A DNA stretch of 40,034 nt from UHGV virus genome UHGV-0388909. The stretch is one strand, 5' to 3'. Below are positions 996-23,399 of the stretch, piece after piece. The translations under genes and the position numbers were made by a program. The notes under the pieces are model-generated. The model did not search any database. It was not told the DNA's origin and saw nothing but the letters and a program-made list of their open reading frames with translations. Within the stretch, counting starts at the first letter, position 1, and every line of letters begins with the position of its first letter. The stretch comes from a virus.

Positions 996-3900
996 ATGAC
1001 GGTCTCAACCGAAGTTGACCACAACGAATACACCGGTAACGGCGTTACGACATCGTTTCCGTATACTTTTCGAATTTTCAGAAAATCAGACCTGGTTGTT
1101 CAGGTGTCTGACCTGAACGGGAACGTAACAGAATTGGTCCTGGATACTGGTTATACGGTAACTGGGGCGGGCACTTATAGTGGCGGTTCTGTGGTTCTTC
1201 CGTCTCCGCTTGCTACTGGATGGCGAATTACGATAGATCGTGTGCTTGATGTAGTGCAGGACACAGACCTTCGCAATCAGGGAAAATTTTTCCCCGAAGT
1301 GCATGAAGATGCCTTTGACTACCTGACGATGCTGATCCAGCAATGTTTTGGGTGGTTCAGACGTGCATTGATGAAACCATCTTTGCTTGCAAAATATTAC
1401 GATGCAAAGCAAAACAAAATTTCTAACCTTGCAGATCCATCATTTGAGCAGGACGCTGTAAATAATCGCTCAATGCGTAATTATGTCGATGCTGCAATCG
1501 CCGGAGTTGTTGGTGGTTTTGGTTGGTTTATTCAGTATGGTTCTGGGGCTGTGTACCGAACGTTCCAGGATAAAATGCGTGATGCTATTAGCCCCAAAGA
1601 TTTTGGAGCTGTTGGTGATGGTATAAATGACGACTCCACTGCAATAAGCGCGTGCCTTGAAGCCTCATCTCCAGGTTATAAAATTGACGGATTAGGGCTT
1701 ACTTTTAAAGTATCAACTCTTCCGGATGTCAGTCGATTTAAAAATGCTCGTTTTTTATTTGAGAGAATACCGGGCCAGCCTCTTTTTTATGCTTCTGAAG
1801 ATTTTATCCAGGGAGAGTTATTTAAAATTACAGATACACCGTGGTACAACGCCTGGACGCAGGATAAAACGTTTGTATATGACAATGTCATCTATGCGCC
1901 TTTTATGGCTGGAGACCGCCATGGTGTAAATAACCTCCATGTTGCATGGGTTCGCTCAGGAGATGACGGGAAGACCTGGACAACGCCGGAATGGCTTACA
2001 GATTTACATGAAAACTATCCCACAGTTAACTATCACTGCATGAGTATGGGGGTTGTCAGAAATCGCCTTTTTGCTGTAATTGAGACGCGGACCGTGAGAG
2101 GAAATAAACTGCAGGTTGCAGAGTTGTGGGATCGCCCAATGAGTCGCAGCCTTCGCGTTTATGGTGGTATAACGAAAGCAGCAAATCAGCAAGTCGCTTA
2201 TATTCGCATTACTGATCACGGATTATTTGCTGGTGATTTTGTCAACTTCTCAAACTCTGGTGTTACAGGTGTTACCGGGAATATGACGGTGACTACTGTT
2301 ATTGATAAAAATACTTTTACAGTTACGACGCAAAATACTCAGGATGTGGATCAGAATAACGAGGGTAGATACTGGAGTTTTGGCACATCATTTCACTCGT
2401 CACCATGGAGAAAAACCAGTCTTGGAACTATTCCTTCTTTTGTTGACGGAAGCACTCCTGTTACTGAGATTCACAGTTTTGCGACGATTAACGATAACAG
2501 TTTTGCTGTTGGCTACCATAATGGTGATATTGGTCCACGCGAGCTTGGGATACTCTATTTCTCTGATGCTTTCGGTTCTCCTGGTAGCTTTGTTCGCAGA
2601 CGCATACCTGCAGAATATGAGGCGAATGCATCTGAGCCATGTGTAAAATATTATGATGGCATTCTGTATCTGACGACCAGGGGGACATTAAGTACTCGAC
2701 CCGGTAGTTCATTGCACAGAAGCTCTGATTTAGGTACATCATGGAATTCTCTTCGCTTCCCAAATAATGTTCATCACTCAAACCTTCCTTTTGCCAAAGT
2801 TGGCGATGAGCTGATTATTTTTGGCAGTGAGCGCGCATTTGGTGAGTGGGAAGGAGGAGAACCTGATAACCGTTATGCAGGAAATTATCCAAGAACATTT
2901 ATGACCAGAGTTAACGTCAATGAGTGGAGTCTGGATAATGTAGAGTGGGTTAATGTTACTGATCAGATTTATCAGGGCGGAATAGTTAACTCTGCGGTTG
3001 GTGTTGGTTCAGTTTGTATCAAAGACAACTGGCTGTACTACATTTTCGGTGGGGAAGATTTTCTAAACCCATGGAGCATAGGGGATAACAACAGAAAATA
3101 TCCTTATGTTCACGATGGTCACCCGGCTGATTTGTATTGTTTCAGGGTGAAAATTAAACAGGAAGAATTTGTTTCAAGGGATTTTGTCTACGGAGCCACT
3201 CCTAACAGAACGCTTCCTACTTTTATGTCGACGTCAGGCGTGAGGACGGTTCCTGTACCCGTTGATTTCACAGATGATGTTGCCGTCCAGTCACTGACTG
3301 TCCATGCAGGTACATCAGGACAAGTTCGCGCGGAAGTCAAACTTGAGGGTAATTACGCCATTATTGCGAAGAAAGTACCGTCTGATGATGTTACCGCTCA
3401 GAGATTAATCGTTAGCGGCGGTGAAACAACGTCTTCAGCAGATGGTGCAATGATAACGTTGCATGGTTCCAGAAGCAGTACTCCACGTCGCGCGGTATAT
3501 AACGCACTCGAACATCTTTTTGAGAACGGAGATGTTAAACCTTATCTTGATAATGTAAATGCTCTTGGTGGTCCGGGAAACAGGTTCTCGACAGTTTATC
3601 TTGGCTCCAATCCTGTGGTTACCAGTGACGGAACATTAAAGACAGAGCCGGTCTCTCCTGACGAAGCATTGCTGGATGCCTGGGGTGACGTCAGGTATAT
3701 CGCTTATAAATGGCTGAACGCTGTCGCTATAAAGGGGGAAGAAGGGGCGAGGATACATCATGGTGTAATCGCGCAGCAACTTCGTGATGTTCTTATTTCT
3801 CACGGACTCATGGAAGAAGAAAGCACAACATGCCGCTATGCCTTTCTTTGCTATGACGATTATCCCGCAGTATATGATGACGTCATTACTGGCCAAAGGG

Positions 3901-4115
3901 AAATGCCGCTGACTGATAATGACGGGAGCATCATTGTTGATGAGGATGATAATCCAGTGATGGTAATAGAAGACATCATTGAGCGCGTTGAAATAACGCC
4001 AGCAGGATCTAGATGGGGGGTCAGACCTGATCTCTTATTCTATATCGAGGCAGCATGGCAGCGCAGAGAAATGGATAAGATAAAAGAGCGGGTTCAGTCT
4101 CTGGAAGAACGTTAA
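996..4115 (+). CDS. Tailspike/tail fibre: N-terminal anchor domain, central sialidase-like depolymerase, C-terminal intramolecular chaperone (peptidase S74-like)
   Basis: Two Asp-box motifs (SGDDGKTW, SSDLGTSW); beta-helix-type motif DFGAVGDGINDD; C-terminal ...VTSDGTLK...HHGVIAQQL... typical of self-cleaving chaperone domains. Confidence 0.75.
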   Translation: MTVSTEVDHNEYTGNGVTTSFPYTFRIFRKSDLVVQVSDLNGNVTELVLDTGYTVTGAGTYSGGSVVLPSPLATGWRITIDRVLDVVQDTDLRNQGKFFPEVHEDAFDYLTMLIQQCFGWFRRALMKPSLLAKYYDAKQNKISNLADPSFEQDAVNNRSMRNYVDAAIAGVVGGFGWFIQYGSGAVYRTFQDKMRDAISPKDFGAVGDGINDDSTAISACLEASSPGYKIDGLGLTFKVSTLPDVSRFKNARFLFERIPGQPLFYASEDFIQGELFKITDTPWYNAWTQDKTFVYDNVIYAPFMAGDRHGVNNLHVAWVRSGDDGKTWTTPEWLTDLHENYPTVNYHCMSMGVVRNRLFAVIETRTVRGNKLQVAELWDRPMSRSLRVYGGITKAANQQVAYIRITDHGLFAGDFVNFSNSGVTGVTGNMTVTTVIDKNTFTVTTQNTQDVDQNNEGRYWSFGTSFHSSPWRKTSLGTIPSFVDGSTPVTEIHSFATINDNSFAVGYHNGDIGPRELGILYFSDAFGSPGSFVRRRIPAEYEANASEPCVKYYDGILYLTTRGTLSTRPGSSLHRSSDLGTSWNSLRFPNNVHHSNLPFAKVGDELIIFGSERAFGEWEGGEPDNRYAGNYPRTFMTRVNVNEWSLDNVEWVNVTDQIYQGGIVNSAVGVGSVCIKDNWLYYIFGGEDFLNPWSIGDNNRKYPYVHDGHPADLYCFRVKIKQEEFVSRDFVYGATPNRTLPTFMSTSGVRTVPVPVDFTDDVAVQSLTVHAGTSGQVRAEVKLEGNYAIIAKKVPSDDVTAQRLIVSGGETTSSADGAMITLHGSRSSTPRRAVYNALEHLFENGDVKPYLDNVNALGGPGNRFSTVYLGSNPVVTSDGTLKTEPVSPDEALLDAWGDVRYIAYKWLNAVAIKGEEGARIHHGVIAQQLRDVLISHGLMEEESTTCRYAFLCYDDYPAVYDDVITGQREMPLTDNDGSIIVDEDDNPVMVIEDIIERVEITPAGSRWGVRPDLLFYIEAAWQRREMDKIKERVQSLEER

Positions 4116-4121
4116 AAAAAA

Positions 4122-4141
4122 GCCCGCAAAATATTGCGGGT
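4122..4141. terminator. GC hairpin after the tailspike gene, flanked by A8 upstream and an A-rich run downstream
   Basis: Stem cccgcaa/ttgcggg; better oriented as a minus-strand terminator (U8 on that strand). Confidence 0.4.
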
Positions 4142-4421
4142 ATCAAAAACGGAGTTGGTGAAAAGTTATCTTTGAATTCTATCATGAATCAGTACGTATT
4201 TTAAATACATGTTCAGGTTTATTACACCATAGCATTATTAAATACAAAATTAAGTCTATGGTTCCTGTACAACTGCCCCCACTCTGCTGGCTCGTTCTGT
4301 AAAATCATTAGTACTTTTATTGAGATATATGATATGGAACAATAATGATTCATATATGGTTTACTATGCGGGTTTAGTCATCAATAATTGACTGGCTTAT
4401 AGATAGTAAACAGGAGAAAGT

Positions 4422-4826
4422 ATGTCTGCTCAAGTAACAAGTGAGCAATTAAATCAGTTGCTTAGTTTTGGTTCTCTTGCTGCAGTTATTGCAGGTGTCC
4501 CTCCGGAGGTTGCTTTAGGGGCTTTGGCTGGGGCGGTAATTTTTGTTACCTCTGCAGTAGAGTACCCCATCCGTCGCCGGGTGCTCCTGTCGATGCTCAG
4601 CTTTCTTTGCGGCCTTCTCTTTTACAAACCAGCAGCATCAATTCTTATCGGCATAGCCAGCCTGATCCCTACCATCACGCAGGACTCTTTTGAAAAAGGG
4701 ATTGTTTTCTCTGCAGGCGCATTCGTGTCAGCAATTGTCGCTGTGCGTATTGGTATATGGCTCTATCACCGTTCCGATAATCCACGCGAGTTAATTCCGG
4801 GGAGAAAAGACGATGGTAACGCATGA
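4422..4826 (+). CDS. Holin-like membrane protein (multiple predicted TM segments)
   Basis: Hydrophobic segments; immediately upstream of the endolysin; good Shine-Dalgarno. Confidence 0.55.
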   Translation: MSAQVTSEQLNQLLSFGSLAAVIAGVPPEVALGALAGAVIFVTSAVEYPIRRRVLLSMLSFLCGLLFYKPAASILIGIASLIPTITQDSFEKGIVFSAGAFVSAIVAVRIGIWLYHRSDNPRELIPGRKDDGNA

Positions 4827-5121
4827 GTTTTTTTTGCTTATCACTAATGCAGTTATTTGCACTGGCATAGCAATTCGCGTTGTCACATTCCGGCGTAACG
4901 GCTCTCAACATCGAAGGTGGGGAGGATGGCTTGCTTATTTCCTGATTGTTGCTGCGGCCAGTATTCCTGTTCGAGTCGCCTATGCAATCTGGTTACGTAC
5001 GCCAATGGCTGTGGATTTATCTGAGGTCATTATCAACGCTGTCATGCTGGCTGCGGTTATTAAAACGCGCGGTAACGTCGTTCAAATTTTTAAAGTATCG
5101 AGGTCTAAACATGGAGATTAA
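4813..5121 (+). CDS. Second small membrane protein of the lysis cassette (holin/antiholin-like)
   Basis: About three hydrophobic segments; overlaps both neighbours; GGAG 8 nt before the ATG. Confidence 0.5.
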
Positions 5122-6239: not shown

Positions 6240-6510
6240 TGATTTCCGGTGACGGTATATAAAACGGTACGGGAAAAATTGAGATTTGGAAAAATGTTAT
6301 CACTCAATTGGTTATGGTTATCGTAAATAATTGAGTGGGAATGATTAACAGCTAACTCATAGCAACTCATTCCTATTCAGATACTAATTTAACCCTCTGT
6401 TTTTACAGAGGGTTTTTGTTTTTATGTATTCATTTCTATTCACTCTACACCATATTTTTCGTCGGTACAGGTGACGGTATTACCTTAAAGGTATACTCTC
6501 ATACCGTCAT
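6240..6510. other. Candidate attP region with repeated arm-like sequences
   Basis: Non-coding stretch between the lysis genes and int; GGTGACGGTAT at 6249-6259 and 6470-6480, inverted partner ATACCGTC at 6501-6508, degenerate TTACC palindrome at 6480-6494. Confidence 0.35.
6393..6423 (+). terminator. Rho-independent terminator after the lysis cassette
   Basis: Stem ccctctg/cagaggg followed by TTTTTGTTTTT. Confidence 0.75.
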
Positions 6511-6536
6511 GAAAATGGTTTCTATACGGGTGAATT

Positions 6537-7793
6537 GTGCTTACCGATACAAAATTAAAAAACCTCAAGCCGCAGGACAAACTGTACAAGGTCTCCGATC
6601 GTGACGGGCTGTATGTAGCTGTGCTTACGTCAGGCACGGTCTCGTTTCGCTATGACTACCGTATCAACGGTCGCCGCGAAACACTGGTAATCGGGCAGTA
6701 TGGGCGTGACGGTATCAGCCTGGCAGAAGCGCGAGAAGAACTGATTGCTGCAAAGAAGCTGCTTAAAGCAGGCCAGTCACCGGCTGCGGCTAAACGTGAC
6801 GGTATTAAAAAGATTCGTGGTGCCGAGACGTTTGCGGTACATACCGACAGTTATATGAAACACGTCATCCTGGCTGACAGTACCCGCGCAATGAAGCAGG
6901 CGGTGATCGACCGTGACATACTTCCGGTTCTTGGCAACAAAATGATGGCTGAAATTACCACATCAATGGTTCGTGATTTGTGTGACCGGATTGTCGAACG
7001 CGGTGGTCGGGCAACAGCAGTACAGGCCAGGGAGATCATCAGCAGCGTATACCGTCACGCCAATGACCGTGGTCATGGTTTGTTTAATCCTGCGGCTGAC
7101 ATTAAACCTTCGTCTATCGCCATATTTAAACCACGAGAGCGAACACTGACACCAGAAGAAATTGGCCTGTTCTTCCGCACGCTGGATGCCATTGGTGCTA
7201 TGGGCACTATGAAAATGGCTTTAAAGCTGGTGCTTATCACCATGGTTCGTAAGGGAGAATTCACCAATGCAACGTGGGATGAAATAGATTTTAAAAAATG
7301 GACATGGACAATTCCTTCAGACCGCATGAAGGGAAGTCGGGCGCACGTTATTTACCTGCCTAAACAGGCACAGGATATATTAGTCGGGTTGCAGATGTGC
7401 GCTGGTGGAAGTGAATATCTGGTTCCTGGTCGTTACAATTTCCGGAAGCCATTATCTAATGCCGCGCTGAACTCTCTGATCGACAGAACGGTGAAAATAA
7501 TAAATGAAGATGGTGAGCATATTCAGGATTTTACTGTACATGATATGCGCCGTACAGCCAGTACATTGTTGCATGAGGCTGGTTATCCTTCAGACTGGAT
7601 TGAAAAGGCTCTGGCACACGAGCAGAAAGGTGTGCGCGCCGTATATAACAAAGCGGAATACGCCAGACAGCGCGCCTACATGTTGCAGCAGTGGGCCGAT
7701 ATGATTGATTCCTGGATTAACGGGGAGCATACGGATCTGATTCCGTTCTCCCCGTCGAAGTTTGAGAAGTGGATGGAAGACAGTAATAAATAA
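6537..7793 (+). CDS. int: Tyrosine site-specific integrase
   Basis: GTG start; N-terminal arm-binding-type region; C-terminal HDMRRT...Y catalytic signature. Confidence 0.85.
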   Translation: MLTDTKLKNLKPQDKLYKVSDRDGLYVAVLTSGTVSFRYDYRINGRRETLVIGQYGRDGISLAEAREELIAAKKLLKAGQSPAAAKRDGIKKIRGAETFAVHTDSYMKHVILADSTRAMKQAVIDRDILPVLGNKMMAEITTSMVRDLCDRIVERGGRATAVQAREIISSVYRHANDRGHGLFNPAADIKPSSIAIFKPRERTLTPEEIGLFFRTLDAIGAMGTMKMALKLVLITMVRKGEFTNATWDEIDFKKWTWTIPSDRMKGSRAHVIYLPKQAQDILVGLQMCAGGSEYLVPGRYNFRKPLSNAALNSLIDRTVKIINEDGEHIQDFTVHDMRRTASTLLHEAGYPSDWIEKALAHEQKGVRAVYNKAEYARQRAYMLQQWADMIDSWINGEHTDLIPFSPSKFEKWMEDSNK

Positions 7794-12164: not shown

Positions 12165-12749
12165 TTATTGTTTGTTTTTTTCGTTCTGGTTGATGACAAA
12201 TTCAATGTAACTTTCGATCTTTGCTTTCTCGGTTTCGGGTAACAATGCGTAGCGTGAGCGGTCATAGTTGATAGTCGCAGGGTCGTGCGGGTGAATCAGT
12301 AGTTCATATCCGTGACGCCCGAATGCGGATGCAACATTCTCCAGGGTGGAAATGGAAACGCTGACCTCATTGTTTAACAGGCGGCTGATTGTCACCTGGG
12401 CGACGCCGGATGCGCGGTGAAGTTTTCCCTGTGTTGAAAGGTCGCGGCTTTCGCTCATCCAGCGTTCCAGGTTGTGAGCCGCCAGCTGACCTATATCGCT
12501 CGGGCCGACAGGCTGAAAACCCTCCTGAGAAAGCGAACGATCAATATCAAGCCAGTTACGGGGTTTATTGGCGGCCGCTTCAATTTTTCGTGCAACCTGG
12601 TCGCCGATAACCTTCTTGCCAAGAGCCCAGCGGTTTACCAGATTTGCCTGAGTTCCAAGTTTTTCTGCCATCCGCGTCTGAACACCATTGAATTCACGGT
12701 CGATCAAGTCGTTGAGATTTTGCCTGCGGACGTCCTGGATACTTTTCAT
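12165..12749 (-). CDS. Immunity repressor candidate: two HTH domains, no LexA-like peptidase domain
   Basis: HTH-like segments near residues 20-45 and 110-140; no GDSM/Ser-Lys peptidase motifs; divergent from the Cro-like gene. Confidence 0.6.
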   Translation of the reverse strand: MKSIQDVRRQNLNDLIDREFNGVQTRMAEKLGTQANLVNRWALGKKVIGDQVARKIEAAANKPRNWLDIDRSLSQEGFQPVGPSDIGQLAAHNLERWMSESRDLSTQGKLHRASGVAQVTISRLLNNEVSVSISTLENVASAFGRHGYELLIHPHDPATINYDRSRYALLPETEKAKIESYIEFVINQNEKNKQ

Positions 12750-18260: not shown

Positions 18261-18857
18261 ATGATGCCTGCTGAACCTAAAGCCTATAAACGCAAATCAA
18301 CGCAATTTAAGCCACTAACAGCAATGCAGGAGGCTTATTGCCAGTCATACATCAAAACGCCTGAAAACCAGACTCAGGCAGCGATTAACGCAGGATTCTC
18401 CCCAAATACAGCGGCAGTTAAAGCCAGTGTCATGATGCGCGATGAACGCATTCAAAAACGGATTGCCGAGTTGATGGAGGAGCGCAACAAACGAATGCGC
18501 GTCAGTGCTGATTACGTTCTCATGCGCCTGGTGGAGATCGACCAGATGGACGTGATCGACATCCTCAACGACGATGGGAGCCTTAAGCCAATCCGCGAGT
18601 GGCCGAAAATCTGGCGCACTACGCTTAGTGGCTTTGATCTGTCATCGACCATCATGAACATGAACGAGGATTCGATAGAGACAATCCTCAAAAAAATTAA
18701 ATGGCCTGACAAGGTGAAGAACCTCGAACTGATTGGTAAGCACGTCGACGTCAACGCATTCAAAGAACGCCTGGATGTTAATGTGAATGTGACAATTGCT
18801 GATCGCATAGCGGCAGCCAGGAAGAGACTGAAAGAACGTCAGGATGGCAATCAGTGA
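18261..18857 (+). CDS. Terminase small subunit
   Basis: Directly upstream of and coupled to terL; start ATG at 18261 after the terminator. Confidence 0.55.
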   Translation: MMPAEPKAYKRKSTQFKPLTAMQEAYCQSYIKTPENQTQAAINAGFSPNTAAVKASVMMRDERIQKRIAELMEERNKRMRVSADYVLMRLVEIDQMDVIDILNDDGSLKPIREWPKIWRTTLSGFDLSSTIMNMNEDSIETILKKIKWPDKVKNLELIGKHVDVNAFKERLDVNVNVTIADRIAAARKRLKERQDGNQ

Positions 18858-20329
18858 CAGATACAGCGTTATCTCCTGAAGAGCAGTTAATCGAGGATAT
18901 TGCAGGGTTCACTCACGATCCGCTTGGCTATGCCCTCTATGCGTTCCCGTGGGGGGAAGAGGGGACTGAACTGGCACATGCCACCGGCCCACGTCAGTGG
19001 CAGGCTGATGCGTTCCGAGAGATACGTGATCACCTGCAGAATCCAGAGACGCGCTATCAGCCGCTTATGCTGGCACGCGCTTCTGGTCACGGTATTGGTA
19101 AATCCGCATTCATCTCAATGCTGATCAACTGGGGCATGTCCACTTGCGAGGATTGTAAGGTCGTGGTGACCGCCAACACCGACAACCAGCTACGAACGAA
19201 GACCTGGCCGGAAATTATCAAGTGGTCGAACCTTGCTATCACGAAAGACTGGTTTACCTGTACCGCTACCGCGATGTACAGCAATGACCTAGGGCACGAC
19301 AAGCGGTGGCGGGCTGACGCAATACCCTGGTCTGAGCACAACACCGAGGCATTCGCCGGACTACACAACGAGCGCAAACGCATCATCGTGGTATTCGATG
19401 AAGCGTCGAACATTGCGGATCTGGTGTGGGAAGTTGCTGAGGGTGCGCTTACGGACGAAGACACGGAAATTATCTGGGTGGCGTTTGGGAACCCGACGCG
19501 TAACACCGGGCGCTTCCGCGAATGCTTCCGCAAGTACAAGCACCGCTGGAAGTGCGCGCAGATTGACAGCCGCACCGTGGAAGGCACAAACAAGCAGCAG
19601 CTGCAGAAATGGGTTGACGACTACGGCGAAGACAGCGACTTCGTGAAGGTCCGCGTGCGGGGGATCTTCCCTGACGCGTCAGAACTCCAGTTTATCCCAA
19701 CAGGCCTTACAGACGAGGCCATGAAGCGGGTGGTTACCGCTGCGCAGGTTGCACATGCTCCGGTGATAATCGGTGTTGACCCGGCATATTCAGGCGTTGA
19801 TGACGCGGTGATATACCTGCGGCAGGGGCTACACAGTAAGGTGCTGTGGACTGGCAACAAGACTACCGACGATCTGATTATGGCGAAGCGTATCGCTGAC
19901 TTTGAAGACCAGTATCAGGCTGACGCGGTGTTCATCGACTTCGGTTACGGAACCGGTTTGAAGTCAATCGGTGATGGCTGGGGACGTACATGGCAACTTG
20001 TTCCGTTCGGTGGCGCGTCTACTGACCCGCAGATGCTCAACAAGCGTGGGGAGATGTTCAACTCATGCAAGACATGGCTGAGGCTCGGCGGCATGCTGGA
20101 TGACCAGGAAACTGCAGACGACCTGTCGGCGGCAGAGTACAAAGTTCGTGTGGACGGTAAAATCGTTATCGAACCGAAGGAAGATATCAAGGAGCGGCTT
20201 GGGCGTTCGCCGGGTAAAGGCGATGCGCTACTGCTGACGTTTGCGTTCCCTGTGTCTAAGCGTCTGCGAATTCCCGGGCAGCAGAACCAGCAAGGCAAGG
20301 CCATTACAGATTATGATCCCTATGCTTAA
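18854..20329 (+). CDS. Terminase large subunit
   Basis: P-loop-like SGHGIGKS; acidic residues in nuclease half (VIIGVDPAYSGVDDAVI); 491 aa. Confidence 0.8.
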   Translation: MTDTALSPEEQLIEDIAGFTHDPLGYALYAFPWGEEGTELAHATGPRQWQADAFREIRDHLQNPETRYQPLMLARASGHGIGKSAFISMLINWGMSTCEDCKVVVTANTDNQLRTKTWPEIIKWSNLAITKDWFTCTATAMYSNDLGHDKRWRADAIPWSEHNTEAFAGLHNERKRIIVVFDEASNIADLVWEVAEGALTDEDTEIIWVAFGNPTRNTGRFRECFRKYKHRWKCAQIDSRTVEGTNKQQLQKWVDDYGEDSDFVKVRVRGIFPDASELQFIPTGLTDEAMKRVVTAAQVAHAPVIIGVDPAYSGVDDAVIYLRQGLHSKVLWTGNKTTDDLIMAKRIADFEDQYQADAVFIDFGYGTGLKSIGDGWGRTWQLVPFGGASTDPQMLNKRGEMFNSCKTWLRLGGMLDDQETADDLSAAEYKVRVDGKIVIEPKEDIKERLGRSPGKGDALLLTFAFPVSKRLRIPGQQNQQGKAITDYDPYA

Positions 20330-20380
20330 TCCGTTAGCGGGGATAATGACGGAGATATCCTCTGGTGAGGATAAAACAAA

Positions 20381-20398
20381 GCCAGCTCATCGGCTGGC
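20381..20398. terminator. Hairpin between convergent terL and the minus-strand island
   Basis: Stem gccagc/gctggc, loop tcatcg, T-rich on both sides. Confidence 0.45.
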
Positions 20399-20419
20399 TG
20401 TTTGTGACATGTCACGGTG

Positions 20420-20791
20420 TTATTGCTCGCTTAACTTCTGCTTCAGCAAGTAACCTTCAAGCATCCAGATTTTGTTTACAGCATTCTGCCGGGCAATCTT
20501 CCGACCAATTTCCGCATCAAAGTTTTCCGGGCTTGCACAGGCGCTCTCTCCGGTGACGGTGAAGCCGTTGCGCAGCACCAGGACGCAGAACGTCAGCAGA
20601 GAAAGTGATTCGTGCGGCTGGTAGTTTACCTCTCCGCCAGTATGTTTCGCTTTTATGGCTACGCCAAAGGCACCATCTTCTGCTGTGAAATATGCCTCCT
20701 GAGCAATAATGCTCTCGATATGGTCTGGCGTAACGCGCGGCGCGGCTAAACCTTTAGCCTGAATTTCAGATTCAATGTCTTTGTCACTCAT
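20420..20791 (-). CDS. Hypothetical protein in an antisense island within the late region
   Basis: ORF track; same strand as and downstream of the tRNA. Confidence 0.45.
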   Translation of the reverse strand: MSDKDIESEIQAKGLAAPRVTPDHIESIIAQEAYFTAEDGAFGVAIKAKHTGGEVNYQPHESLSLLTFCVLVLRNGFTVTGESACASPENFDAEIGRKIARQNAVNKIWMLEGYLLKQKLSEQ

Positions 20792-20994
20792 AGTCTAATC
20801 TCACCTTAAAAAAATGCCCGGCGAACCGGGCGAACTGGAAGCAATGAGTTATGCCTTCCGTGGCTGTACTGGTTTACAGCATGAAGTCATCGCAATGGCG
20901 TCCTGCTGTAAAAAGGGCGGTGATAGTCCTTCAAGGGAAACCATCACCGCCAAGCACCTGGAACTTCTGGCATCACGGTCCTTAGGCGTGATTC

Positions 20995-21071
20995 TGGCGT
21001 GGCATGCAGGATTCGAACCTGCGACCAACCGCTTAGAAGGCGGTTGCTCTGTCCAACTGAGCTAATGCCAC
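20995..21071 (-). tRNA. tRNA-Arg, anticodon UCU
   Basis: Minus-strand 77 nt GTGGCATTAGCTCAGTTGGACAGAGCAACCGCCTTCTAAGCGGTTGGTCGCAGGTTCGAATCCTGCATGCCACGCCA folds as a cloverleaf with encoded CCA. Confidence 0.85.
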
Positions 21072-21393
21072 AACGCTGAGAGCACTTAGCCTGTTAAGGC
21101 GCCACACTTTGTCGCGGCTCCATAAATGCTCTCATCGTTGTACCCTCGTCTCTTCCGAGGCGTCACACCGAATCGCCGGGATGGTGAATCCCCGTGCGCG
21201 GAATAAAACCGCTCGACTTGCACATTCCGGCTACCTGGTTCGTTTGCCCGAGCAAGGGAGGGTGCCCCTTAAACGTATCCAGACCGCTATCGGCGCATGT
21301 GCCATACGCCGTACTGCTCAAAATAAAAGCTCACTCCACCTGTTCAATTTAACGACAAGCCAGTCAGGTTAGTAACCGGAATGAACTCTTTGG

Positions 21394-21408
21394 TTACCTG
21401 AAAGGTAA
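21394..21408. promoter_or_regulatory. Perfect palindrome TTACCTGAAAGGTAA upstream of the portal transcription unit
   Basis: Same palindrome family. Confidence 0.55.
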
Positions 21409-21498
21409 TAATTTGTGCGTTAAATGTCAACTATCTACGATAAATAAATCATATGTGGTTAAATTGGTAATAATTTAATTGCGTACGGAGTCATTGAT

Positions 21499-21705
21499 AT
21501 GTGCATGGGTAGCTCACCATCAGTGCCTGCAACACCAGAAGTTCAGGCAGCACCACAGGAGCAGGATGCCGCCGTTGTTGATGCCCGCGACGAAGAAACA
21601 CGTCGCCGTCGCGTTGCTGCTGGTCGTAGTTCTACGCTGCTTACCGGTTCTCAGGGCGACACATCAACCGCTAATACCAGCGGTAAAACGCTGCTTGGTC
21701 AGTAA
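21499..21705 (+). CDS. Small Ala/Pro-rich protein upstream of portal
   Basis: RBS context GGAGTCATTGA(T/A)ATG is shared with the portal start. Confidence 0.4.
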   Translation: MCMGSSPSVPATPEVQAAPQEQDAAVVDARDEETRRRRVAAGRSSTLLTGSQGDTSTANTSGKTLLGQ

Positions 21706-21719
21706 CCGGAGTCATTGAA

Positions 21720-23399
21720 ATGGCGGAAACAACTAAAGAGCGATTGAACAAACAGTTCGCACAACTTGAAAGCGAGCGTCAGTCGTTCGAGCCGCACTGG
21801 CGCGAGTTGAGTGATTACATCAACCCGCGTGGTTCCCGCTTTCTGACTTCTGAGGTTAACCGTAACGATCGACGCAATACACGCATTATTGATTCGACCG
21901 GGACTATGGCGGCGCGCACTCTCGCCAGCGGCATGATGTCAGGCATCACAAGCCCCGCGCGTCCGTGGTTTCGCCTGGCTACGCCAGATCCTGAAATGAT
22001 GGATTATGGCCCTGTTAAGTTGTGGCTTGAGGCGGTGCAGAACCGCATGAACGATATGTTCAATAAGTCGAATCTCTATCAGTCGCTGCCGCAGTTATAC
22101 GGAAGCCTCGGCACATACAGCACTGGTGCAATGGCAGTGCTGGAGGATGACGAGGACATCATTCGCACAATGCCATTCCCGATAGGCAGTTACTACCTGG
22201 CTAACTCACCTCGTGGCAGTGTGGACACCTGTTTTCGCAAGTTCTCTATGACTGTTCGTCAGCTTGTTCAGGAGTTCGGGCTAAATAACGTCAGCGAATC
22301 CGTAAAAAGCATGTGGGAAAGCGGAACCTACGAGAAGTGGATTGAAGTGATGCATTCGGTTTACCCGAACATTGACCGCGATACATCGAAGCTGGATAGC
22401 AAGAACAAGCCATTCAAATCGGTTTATTACGAGGTTGGTGGCGATAACGACAAGTTGTTGCGTGAGTCCGGATTCGATGAGTTTCCAATTATGGCCCCGC
22501 GCTGGGAAGTTAACGGCGAAGATGTTTATGGATCATCATGCCCGGGTATGCTGGCGCTTGGACCTGTTAAGGCATTGCAGCTTCTCCAGAAGCGCAAGTC
22601 GCAGTTGATTGATAAAGCCACCAATCCGCCGATGGTTGCTCCGAATTCCCTCAAGAATCAGCGTGCCTCCCTTCTTCCTGGCGACATCACGTATATCGAT
22701 CAGATTACTGGTCAGGATGGTTTCAGGCCTGCTTATCTGGTTAACCCCAGTACAGCAGATTTGGTGGCAGACATTCAGGACACTCGTCAAATCATTAACA
22801 GCGCCTACTTTGTCGATCTGTTCATGATGTTGCAGAACATCAATACCCGCTCGATGCCTGTGGAAGCGGTGATCGAAATGAAAGAAGAAAAACTTCTGAT
22901 GTTGGGGCCGGTTCTGGAGCGCCTGAACGACGAATGTCTTAATCCTCTCATTGATCGCTCTTTCTCGATGATGGTGCGTAAAAACATGCTGCCGCCACCG
23001 CCTGACGCGATGGAAGGCATGCCCCTGAAGGTCGAATACATTTCCGTCATGGCTCAGGCGCAGAAGTCTATCGGCCTGTCCAGTCTGGCGTCCACGGTTA
23101 ACTTCATTGGTCAACTTGCGCAAGCGAAACCAGAAGCTCTCGACAAACTCAACGTTGATCAGGCGATCGATGCATTCGCTGATATGTCCGGAGTGTCTCC
23201 AACCGTCATTGTTCCGCAGGAACAGGTTGAGCAGGCTCGCCAGCAACGGGCACAGCAACAACAGCAGCAACAAATGATGGCGATGGGGATGGCGGCGGCA
23301 CAGGGTGCCAAGACGCTAAGCGAAGCTAAAACTTCGGATCCGAGTGTTTTGTCAGCTATGGCGAATGCAGTTAGTGGTCAGGGTGGGCAATCACAATGA
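21720..23399 (+). CDS. Portal protein
   Basis: 559 aa, first large gene of the head module, Q-rich C-terminus; assigned by position and size. Confidence 0.6.
   Translation: MAETTKERLNKQFAQLESERQSFEPHWRELSDYINPRGSRFLTSEVNRNDRRNTRIIDSTGTMAARTLASGMMSGITSPARPWFRLATPDPEMMDYGPVKLWLEAVQNRMNDMFNKSNLYQSLPQLYGSLGTYSTGAMAVLEDDEDIIRTMPFPIGSYYLANSPRGSVDTCFRKFSMTVRQLVQEFGLNNVSESVKSMWESGTYEKWIEVMHSVYPNIDRDTSKLDSKNKPFKSVYYEVGGDNDKLLRESGFDEFPIMAPRWEVNGEDVYGSSCPGMLALGPVKALQLLQKRKSQLIDKATNPPMVAPNSLKNQRASLLPGDITYIDQITGQDGFRPAYLVNPSTADLVADIQDTRQIINSAYFVDLFMMLQNINTRSMPVEAVIEMKEEKLLMLGPVLERLNDECLNPLIDRSFSMMVRKNMLPPPPDAMEGMPLKVEYISVMAQAQKSIGLSSLASTVNFIGQLAQAKPEALDKLNVDQAIDAFADMSGVSPTVIVPQEQVEQARQQRAQQQQQQQMMAMGMAAAQGAKTLSEAKTSDPSVLSAMANAVSGQGGQSQ

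Follow-up and report, generated by a model that had tools for sequence, protein, structure and literature searches.

The window analysed here is the whole stretch of 40,034 nucleotides (nt) from the viral genome UHGV-0388909. The subject of the analysis is a short minus-strand island lying in it between the plus-strand genes terL and portal, and above all a structured RNA within this island, here termed the core. The section between 20300 and 21500 showed 99.2% identity to Escherichia phage phiV10 and to O157 typing phages 9 and 10, a group that belongs to the epsilon15-like genus Uetakevirus. Plus-strand terS, terL (18854-20329), a gene for a 68-amino-acid (aa) protein and portal (21720-23399, Pfam Head-tail_con) flank the island, so that the strand switch between terL and portal described in an earlier reading of the bare sequence (the original prediction) is real. 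The island is a non-coding transcription unit of the minus strand, which would run from a promoter and operator through a helix (P0), the core RNA, a second helix (P6), tRNA-Arg(UCU), a hairpin and two intrinsic terminators to a variable cargo open reading frame (ORF):

21394-21430, minus strand: promoter within a conserved block, with a -35 of TTGACA (21430-21425), a 17-nt spacer and a -10 of TACCTT (21407-21402)
21394-21408: operator palindrome TTACCTGAAAGGTAA (TTACCTTTCAGGTAA on the minus strand), overlapping the promoter -10 and +1
21317-21390, minus strand: P0, a long imperfect helix followed by the U-rich UUUUAUUUUGAG, from folding
21136-21316, minus strand: core structured RNA (covariance model R1, 146 bits, E about 1e-47)
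21311-21306/21296-21291, minus strand: P1, covarying helix of the core
21283-21280/21237-21234, minus strand: P2, covarying helix, extended by a variable segment with a CCUUG loop as its cap
within the core, minus strand: P3, variable helix
21192-21189/21181-21178, minus strand: P4, covarying helix
21186-21183/21169-21166, minus strand: PK2, pseudoknot, from mutual information
21160-21156/21148-21144, minus strand: P5, covarying helix with the loop GAAGAGA
21302-21297/21225-21220, minus strand: PK1, candidate pseudoknot, unsupported by variation
21071-21140, minus strand: P6, helix of about 16-20 base pairs (bp; CAACGAUGAGAGCA...UGCUCUCAGCGUUG) whose apex varies and whose final nucleotide is the tRNA G1
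20995-21071, minus strand: tRNA-Arg(UCU) with encoded CCA (ARAGORN and Rfam)
20972-20993, minus strand: conserved hairpin AAUCACGCCUAAGGACCGUGAU, directly 3′ of the tRNA slot
20909-20951, minus strand: terminator T1 (hairpin 20951-20916), with a 14-bp stem GGCGGUGAUGG...CUAUCACCGCC and a U run, from a terminator scan; homologue conserved in related loci
20809-20908, minus strand: conserved spacer (hairpin ACAGCA...UGCUGU) and T2, from conservation
20831-20816, minus strand: terminator T2, GCCCGGUUCGCCGGGC followed by U7, from a terminator scan
20420-20791, minus strand: cargo ORF of 123 aa, Phage_gp49_66 (Pfam PF13876, phrog_322)
20380-20399: terminator-like hairpin between the convergent terL and cargo ORF, from a terminator scan; a terminator is annotated in the phiV10 record

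The region upstream of the tRNA had been put forward as a possible unrecognised structured RNA, and comparison with related sequences bore this out. Their alignments showed invariant blocks alternating with stems that varied in both sequence and length. Covariance model R1, built from 29 diverse sequences, matched a single copy in the window (21316-21136, minus strand) and 101 copies in 100 sources. Across 84 distinct sequences, 98.2% of the cells at the proposed pairs held standard pairs, compared with 26-48% in a control in which the partners were slid by one to three columns, and 12 pairs (212 cells) had changed on both sides. The observed covariation score was matched by none of 500 shuffles. 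The best covarying pairs were 10:22 (G-C 49, A-U 34), 36:90 (C-G 52, U-A 31), 145:153 (A-U 44, U-G 20, C-G 19) and 178:188 (C-G 43, G-C 33). The alignment had been fitted by the model to P1, P2, P4 and P5, which biases it in favour of those helices. PK2 lies outside the model; it was nevertheless recovered by a mutual-information scan, pairing the P4 loop CACC with GGUG in the conserved strand CGGUGUGAC, and its column pair 148:168 was C-G in 66 and A-U in 18 sequences with zero exceptions. P1, P2, P4, P5 and PK2 are thus supported, at the level of sequence, by compensatory changes. Many unpaired nucleotides of the core were also invariant, and a block of 19 nt (GGTAGCCGGAATGTGCAAG) was nearly so.

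Several of the pairs (8:24, 11:21 and 34:92) were frequently G-U, which would become A-C mismatches if read from the other strand. As these pairs are workable on one strand only, the RNA is assigned to the minus strand, the same as the tRNA. This bears on two further explanations of the conservation, namely a small protein gene (such as an 87-aa plus-strand ORF at 21109-21372, or mEp460_037) and a DNA-level element such as an attachment site, an origin or a recombination hotspot. ORFs have been called over the region in several records (mEp460_037, Ayreon and phiSTEC1575), and the limits of the region coincide with mosaic module joints. The compensatory changes with G-U pairs, however, work on a single strand, the length of homologous cores varies between 155 and 189 nt, with indels not divisible by three that would break any frame, and ORF 21109-21372 has a TTG start and an implausible composition. 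A protein gene or DNA element is accordingly extremely improbable, and the earlier statement that the leader holds no convincing ORF stands. Both window ORFs on the strand opposite to the tRNA and the RNA (20814-21065 and 21109-21372) are almost certainly spurious; PhiV10p04, which overlies the tRNA in the phiV10 record (L002, 2672-2923; L numbers denote related loci), is likewise regarded as spurious, and mEp460_036/037 (L003, 3749-4302) look so too. The leader had additionally been called GC-rich; its G+C content does exceed the window average of 48.5%, but only modestly (53.6% for 21072-21390 and 59.7% for the core).

The covariance-model scan of the leader returned no Rfam 15 family. Between 19800 and 22000 (E <= 1, permissive filters), the only matches were the tRNA and a chance plastid match on its opposite strand, and an Rfam 15 scan of five related loci found nothing over the core or over the tRNA-like element described below. 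A full-text literature search for the conserved strings found none of them, although a description elsewhere or an unnamed entry in a candidate list is possible, and a keyword search returned only unrelated work (Pas small RNAs and a P1vir/hfq transcriptome). A search through 200 of the 408 supplement files of a microbiome RNA-motif catalogue found no copy of the core sequence, and it was unannotated in all GenBank/RefSeq records inspected. On present evidence from sequence, the core would therefore constitute a new RNA class, whereas the tRNA and the ORF family were already known.

BLAST analysis of 21072-21400 against phage records revealed a central section of ~180 nt with 70-83% identity in differing phages. 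The carriers were lambdoid phages (mEp460, cdtI, 2H10, Ayreon, and Stx2a- and Stx2c-converting phages), epsilon15-like phages of Salmonella, Enterobacter and Klebsiella, and P1-type phages (P1, P7, D6, SJ46 and RCS47). Matches were present in 1840 of 5426 complete E. coli genomes, 1490 of which had at least 80% of the query covered, and were located at 1920 chromosomal and 554 plasmid sites; none of the 40 matches listed had an annotated feature beneath it. A search of IMG/VR with the 19-nt block returned at least 120 stretches, and a metagenome search with a different conserved block also returned at least 120. With this second block, confirmed members came from the genomes of 18 Enterobacteriaceae species and from one 1.75-kb contig binned as a Bacillota metagenome-assembled genome. 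One viral contig (L023) encoded two diverged tandem copies of the core, at 4799-4962 and 3992-4157.

The P1 copy (71,023-71,191) lies between trnI and ban, at a place where nothing is annotated among the 535 features of the P1 record. In P1 and P7 the core is found downstream of a tRNA in the ban operon, and the P7 record annotates C1 operators, Op(ban), for this core-bearing operon. ARAGORN also made a tRNA-Ser(tga)-like call in the P7 ban operon (L004, 4230-4316), which is unannotated in the record. The position between terL and portal had suggested a packaging RNA of the phi29 pRNA kind; this candidate was rejected, as the same RNA also occurs beside the cI gene of lambdoid phages and within the P1 ban operon.

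The lambdoid-prophage RNA comes directly after the cI terminator and two operator-type dyads (TTGCR-N5-YGCAA); dyads of this type also occupy the interval from cI to cro. This order would place the RNA first on the pL transcript, after pL/oL. Between it and the first early-left gene stand a terminator and a structured leader, and roughly 720 nt without an annotated gene, terminator included, lie between cI and that gene. In the opposite direction, cro overlaps the gene that follows it and leaves no space for a nutR/tR1 interval. A second, unrelated repressor-proximal example had the same layout.

The promoter in the window has a perfect -35 and a weak -10 that lies inside the palindrome. Alignment showed the block to be kept in Tyrion, PAT1, SPN9TCW and ST512-KPC3phi13.3, phages of four host genera, and transcription would start at about 21395. 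A more proximal promoter (TTGAAC...TATTTT, 21347-21320) was weak and specific to the window, and the conserved upstream promoter was preferred to it. The palindrome, TTACC-N5-GGTAA, was found 15 times in the window against 0.84 copies expected by chance (at 877, 6480, 12031, 12093, 12805, 12853, 13190, 15129, 15191, 18229, 18247, 21394, 38528, 39596 and 39689), with pairs on both sides of a helix-turn-helix (HTH; Cro/C1-type) gene at 12165-12749. The number of copies and the pairs flanking the HTH gene indicate that the palindrome is very probably the operator of the phage repressor, as the original prediction had supposed for the copy at 21394. The layout looks like a dispersed operator regulon, resembling the scattered C1 operators of P1. 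As the promoter of the unit overlaps a repressor operator, early rather than late expression is suggested.

The core was always upstream of co-oriented genes and, across three unrelated phage architectures, appears always to reside in an operon directly controlled by the repressor. That three different repressor systems control the core-bearing operon points to an immediate-early product, and the RNA would be made at once upon induction or infection.

Helices flank the core on both sides. P6 was predicted as a hairpin in 18 diverse members whose stem sequences differ while the pairing is kept. P0 gave folding z-scores of -2.2 in the window, -3.6 in Tyrion and -3.0 in PAT1, the latter two having GUGUG at the position equivalent to its U-rich stretch. 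P0 is structurally similar to P6, with weaker support than the core has. Beyond P6 is a slot that contains tRNA-Arg, a tRNA-like element or nothing. ARAGORN gave the anticodon of the window tRNA as tct. The sequence ends in ...CACG-CCA, so that the tRNA is complete as originally described, and its score of 73.3 bits against the Rfam tRNA model (RF00005, gathering score 29) speaks against a pseudogene. It is the single tRNA of the whole window, and the records of O157 typing phages 9 and 10 already annotate it. The 20300-21500 query also matched 64 Synechococcus phage records at 80-90% identity, presumably through this tRNA.

Related loci differ in the content of this slot. tRNA-Arg(tct) was encoded on the same strand 61-126 nt past the core at 28 of 144 loci, while at 18 loci, all P1-type and without P6, tRNA-Ile2(cat) directly preceded the core. 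The tRNA-like element, present at many other loci, begins with GUGGUGA and a D-arm-like hairpin (GCGC-AGGCUGAU-GCGC), continues with a variable insert of 40-200 nt, and ends in a T-arm-like hairpin followed by CACCAC, which pairs with the 5′ end of the element. Its T-like stem covaries (GCCGG/CCGGC, GCUGG/CCAGC and GUCGG/CCGAC), and the D-loop GCUGAU is complementary to the T-loop AUCAGC, one member having changed both (GCUAAU/AUUAGC). Neither ARAGORN nor Rfam called these elements. They were located past P6 in L003 (mEp460, about 3800-3990), L012, L148, L137 and others; that of L012 has an anticodon-like loop CUUUUAA, and those of L137, L073 and L130 retain a canonical GGUUCGAnUCC T arm. A counterpart of the hairpin at 20972-20993 was kept after tRNA-Arg, after tRNA-like elements and where the slot is empty. 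In Enterobacter phage Tyrion (L005), an int-alpA RNA motif (RF02996, 44 bits) was found at 1950-2014 in the same island, downstream of the RNA unit.

These arrangements bear on the description of the region as a tRNA leader, which is literally true in this phage, where the region immediately precedes the tRNA in the same orientation and P6 adjoins G1. A plain pre-tRNA leader or processing scaffold, lacking any separate function, would also suit the 46 of 144 loci at which a tRNA adjoins the core (tRNA-Arg follows it at 28 and tRNA-Ile2 precedes it at 18). A true tRNA is, however, missing at about two thirds of the loci, the same RNA being followed by a tRNA-like element or by an empty slot (for example in L010, L038 and L163), and in P1 and P7 the core is downstream of the tRNA. 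The conservation of the core, its nearly invariant 19-nt stretch included, is also far beyond what a leader would need, and we regard this explanation as very unlikely.

T1 and T2, which lie between the tRNA and the ORF, had been overlooked in the original prediction. A strong hairpin with a U run was found within 800 nt of the core in 98 of 113 distinct contexts (median distance 212 nt) by a relaxed finder; a stricter finder, judged too strict, gave 42 of 113. The contexts without such a terminator were mostly P1-type. The T2 U run reaches right up to the cargo ORF's Shine-Dalgarno sequence, and the ORF could therefore be transcribed only by readthrough of T2. The product of this ORF matched PF13876 (Phage_gp49_66) with 121.3 bits against a cutoff of 27, over profile positions 1-82 of 82, in agreement with the earlier call of a 123-aa ORF. 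The cargo slot is mosaic, with unrelated ORFs in related phages (DUF2829, protease-like, DUF551 and others). The spacer between T1 and T2 (20832-20909), conserved in related phages, also contains a 13-codon ORF (MTSCCKPVQPRKA) and could represent a second small RNA or an attenuator leader. The hairpin that bounds the island on the terL side is present and terminator-like, as had been described, with its limits at 20380-20399 rather than 20381-20398.

From its position, we tentatively propose that the RNA controls transcription elongation or termination, a reading that may well prove wrong. The RNA would act on the polymerase making it, or on its own transcript, and its target would be the terminators between it and the downstream genes. 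The logic would be that of an RNA counterpart of HK022 put or lambda N-nut. RNase P would cut at 21071/21072 and free the leader RNA from the tRNA, and in this phage the same transcript would supply tRNA-Arg(UCU) for AGA-rich phage genes. This role is favoured because terminators usually lie between the RNA and the downstream genes, and because in lambdoid phages that lack N but have a terminator after pL something must carry polymerase through.

Readthrough of terminators under put RNA in cis operates through binding of the RNA to the zinc-binding domain of the RNA polymerase beta′ subunit. HK022 putL and putR are cis-encoded RNAs located just after the early promoter of an N-less lambdoid phage, ahead of terminators (PMC9378689). 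A put RNA is about 70 nt long, with two stem-loops and a short triplex, and needs no dedicated phage protein (PMC9378689). Like put, the core is cis-encoded near an early promoter and ahead of terminators, without a dedicated phage protein. Unlike put as described, it is about 165-185 nt long with four helices and a pseudoknot, has long flanking helices and a tRNA slot, and also occurs outside lambdoid phages. HK022 was not among the phage matches listed.

The core was also compared with lambda nut sites and the boxA antitermination signal of rrn. With lambda nut it shares its position after pL, a P5 purine loop (GAAGAGA) that recalls boxB GAAGA, and a P6 3′ strand, UGCUCU(U/C), that resembles boxA UGCUCUUUA and reads UGCUCUCAG in the window. 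Unlike a nut site, this strand is paired in P6 and covaries with its partner, and the motif was lost in L154 and L038; covariation as a helix indicates that the helix, and not a boxA sequence, is what is conserved. A nut site proper, with a single-stranded YGCUCUUUA boxA together with N and boxB, was rejected, as the strand is paired and there is no N-like ORF. No ORF was found between pL and the terminator in the lambdoid case. In the Stenotrophomonas phage BUCT709 record (L163), four or five CCGGGAAAGACCGG-type hairpin repeats follow the terminator at about 2060-2330; their purine loop is reminiscent of P5 and boxB.

Several points weigh against elongation control. The mechanism was deduced from position by itself, and the core was without similarity to put RNA in sequence or structure, as judged from the description of put. 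P1 and P7 have no terminator between the core and ban. Processive antitermination in the window would pass the hairpin at 20380-20399 and run antisense into terL, which seems undesirable. L064 and L100 have the RNA unit and both terminators with no downstream ORF, which suits an autonomous RNA gene better than a cis regulator. The consensus promoter scan missed the promoter at 21394-21430, owing to its weak -10. In the fold, PK1 (GCACAU/AUGUGC) was favoured by RNAalifold, yet its pairs show no covariation and are disrupted in five sequences with no compensating change, so that its six pairs, invariant apart from those few sequences, are a candidate only. P2a, a proposal of two pairs (30:96 and 31:95), was rejected, as AACC replaces AGCC in four metagenome sequences without compensation.

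The units that lack cargo accord with a different explanation, in which the island is an autonomous stable-RNA operon ending at T1 and the RNA acts in trans. RNase P cleavage at the tRNA or tRNA-like element, possibly joined by RNase III cuts within P0 and P6, would free a discrete core RNA (about 180-330 nt). This RNA would bind a factor shared by Enterobacteriaceae hosts (for instance RNA polymerase, the ribosome, a nuclease or a defence protein), and the downstream ORFs would be cargo that hitch-hikes through terminator leakage. The unit is indeed discrete, with a promoter and, in the 98 of 113 contexts, strong terminators. P0 and P6 bracket the core and P6 stops exactly at the tRNA G1, while the tRNA-like element, with its acceptor-like stem, T-like arm and D-/T-loop pairing, offers what an RNase P signal would need. 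By analogy only, a tRNA-like element 3′ of a non-coding RNA lets RNase P form the 3′ end in the eukaryotic MALAT1-mascRNA system. The retention of the unit in L064 and L100, the tandem copies of L023, and the absence of a conserved neighbour protein across three phage types, which would leave a host partner, point the same way. Against this, the lambdoid unit stands between pL and all early-left genes with no promoter apparent past the terminator, P1-type copies lack P6 and a terminator so that their 3′ end would be undefined, and no partner or target is known. We consider a processed trans-acting RNA rather doubtful, though only a little less probable than elongation control.

Precedents exist for such processing. 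RNase P, acting at a tRNA-like feature, matures the immunity RNAs C4 of P1/P7 and CI of P4, which are about 70-90 nt long and act as antisense RNAs on target sites that are known. Like them, the core is a phage RNA in the leader of a repressor-controlled operon; the Rfam C4 model (RF01695) matched mEp460 (L003) at 6452-6539 and not the core, had no match in the window, and no antisense target was evident. T4 species 1 and 2 (rnaC and rnaD) are stable structured RNAs of a tRNA cluster that are co-transcribed and co-processed with phage tRNAs. They differ from the core in coming from another phage group, in their smaller size, in having no detectable similarity to it, and in not being promoter-proximal leaders before terminators. 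GOLLD and ROOL, structured phage and prophage RNAs of 500-800 nt that are often found beside tRNA genes, are mostly from Firmicutes or environmental sources, and their Rfam models did not match the core.

A third possibility is that the core is a leader that senses a ligand or tRNA, in the manner of a riboswitch or T-box, its aptamer state setting termination at T1 and T2, or translation of ban in P1. The pseudoknotted fold and the many invariant unpaired nucleotides resemble those of large aptamers, the RNA is always upstream of co-oriented genes, and in P7 a small hairpin past the core overlaps the ban Shine-Dalgarno sequence. No conserved expression platform adjoins the core, however: P6, a tRNA or a tRNA-like insert of 70-200 nt, and the hairpin intervene, and the terminator is at a median of 212 nt with variable inserts between. 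Alternative pairing of core and terminator was not found, and no Rfam riboswitch matched. Sensing by the core is unlikely.

Concerning the tRNA itself, E. coli arginyl-tRNA synthetase (ArgRS) recognises A20 and C35, plus U36 and G/A73. The ArgRS identity elements could be read in the window tRNA as A20 (D loop AGUUGGACA), C35, U36 and G73, with the anticodon UCU, and its sequence thus qualifies it as a predicted arginine acceptor. AGA and AGG accounted for 8.3 and 6.4 per 1000 codons in a naive set of 50 window ORFs, a few of them spurious; E. coli uses them at about 2 and about 1 per 1000, so usage in the window is several-fold higher. Both codons were nearly absent from terL, portal and the adjacent head genes and were concentrated in the endosialidase tailspike, in late proteins of 915 and 1129 aa and in some early genes. 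Of the earlier suggestion that the tRNA boosts late translation, the overall elevation of AGA/AGG usage is in favour, whereas the head genes, nearly free of both codons, are not. Codon supplementation by tRNA-Arg(UCU) is plausible; it would not be specifically a head-gene effect.

Two observations concern the surroundings of the island. A ~60-nt block at 21440-21498, upstream of the 68-aa gene and portal, was near-invariant across phages of Escherichia, Enterobacter, Salmonella and Klebsiella, and may be a late promoter, an activator site or an element of the 5′ untranslated region. The tailspike (996-4115) contains endosialidase domains (Pfam End_beta_propel, 772 bits), and the phage probably targets a K1-type polysialic acid capsule and not the O157 antigen, despite its 99% phiV10-like head module.

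It is possible, though it must be put cautiously, that the core founds a new class of large pseudoknotted RNAs that P1, lambdoid and epsilon15-like phages make from the onset of lytic growth and that act on a host machine without a phage protein, either as an RNA-only antiterminator of E. coli RNA polymerase with an architecture unrelated to put or as a host-takeover or counter-defence RNA that RNase P releases at a dedicated tRNA-like handle. For annotation, several ORF calls over the RNA or the tRNA, such as PhiV10p04 and mEp460_036/037, look spurious. This structured RNA, so far unrecognised, would head an immediate-early operon in the textbook phage P1 and in about one third of complete E. 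coli genomes. If it is processed and acts in trans, it would represent a new phage riboregulator directed at the host, with a tRNA-like handle for its processing. If elongation control is true, it would explain how a large group of lambdoid phages without N or nut express their early-left genes, and RNAs able to reprogram RNA polymerase would gain a second class, structurally unrelated to the first.

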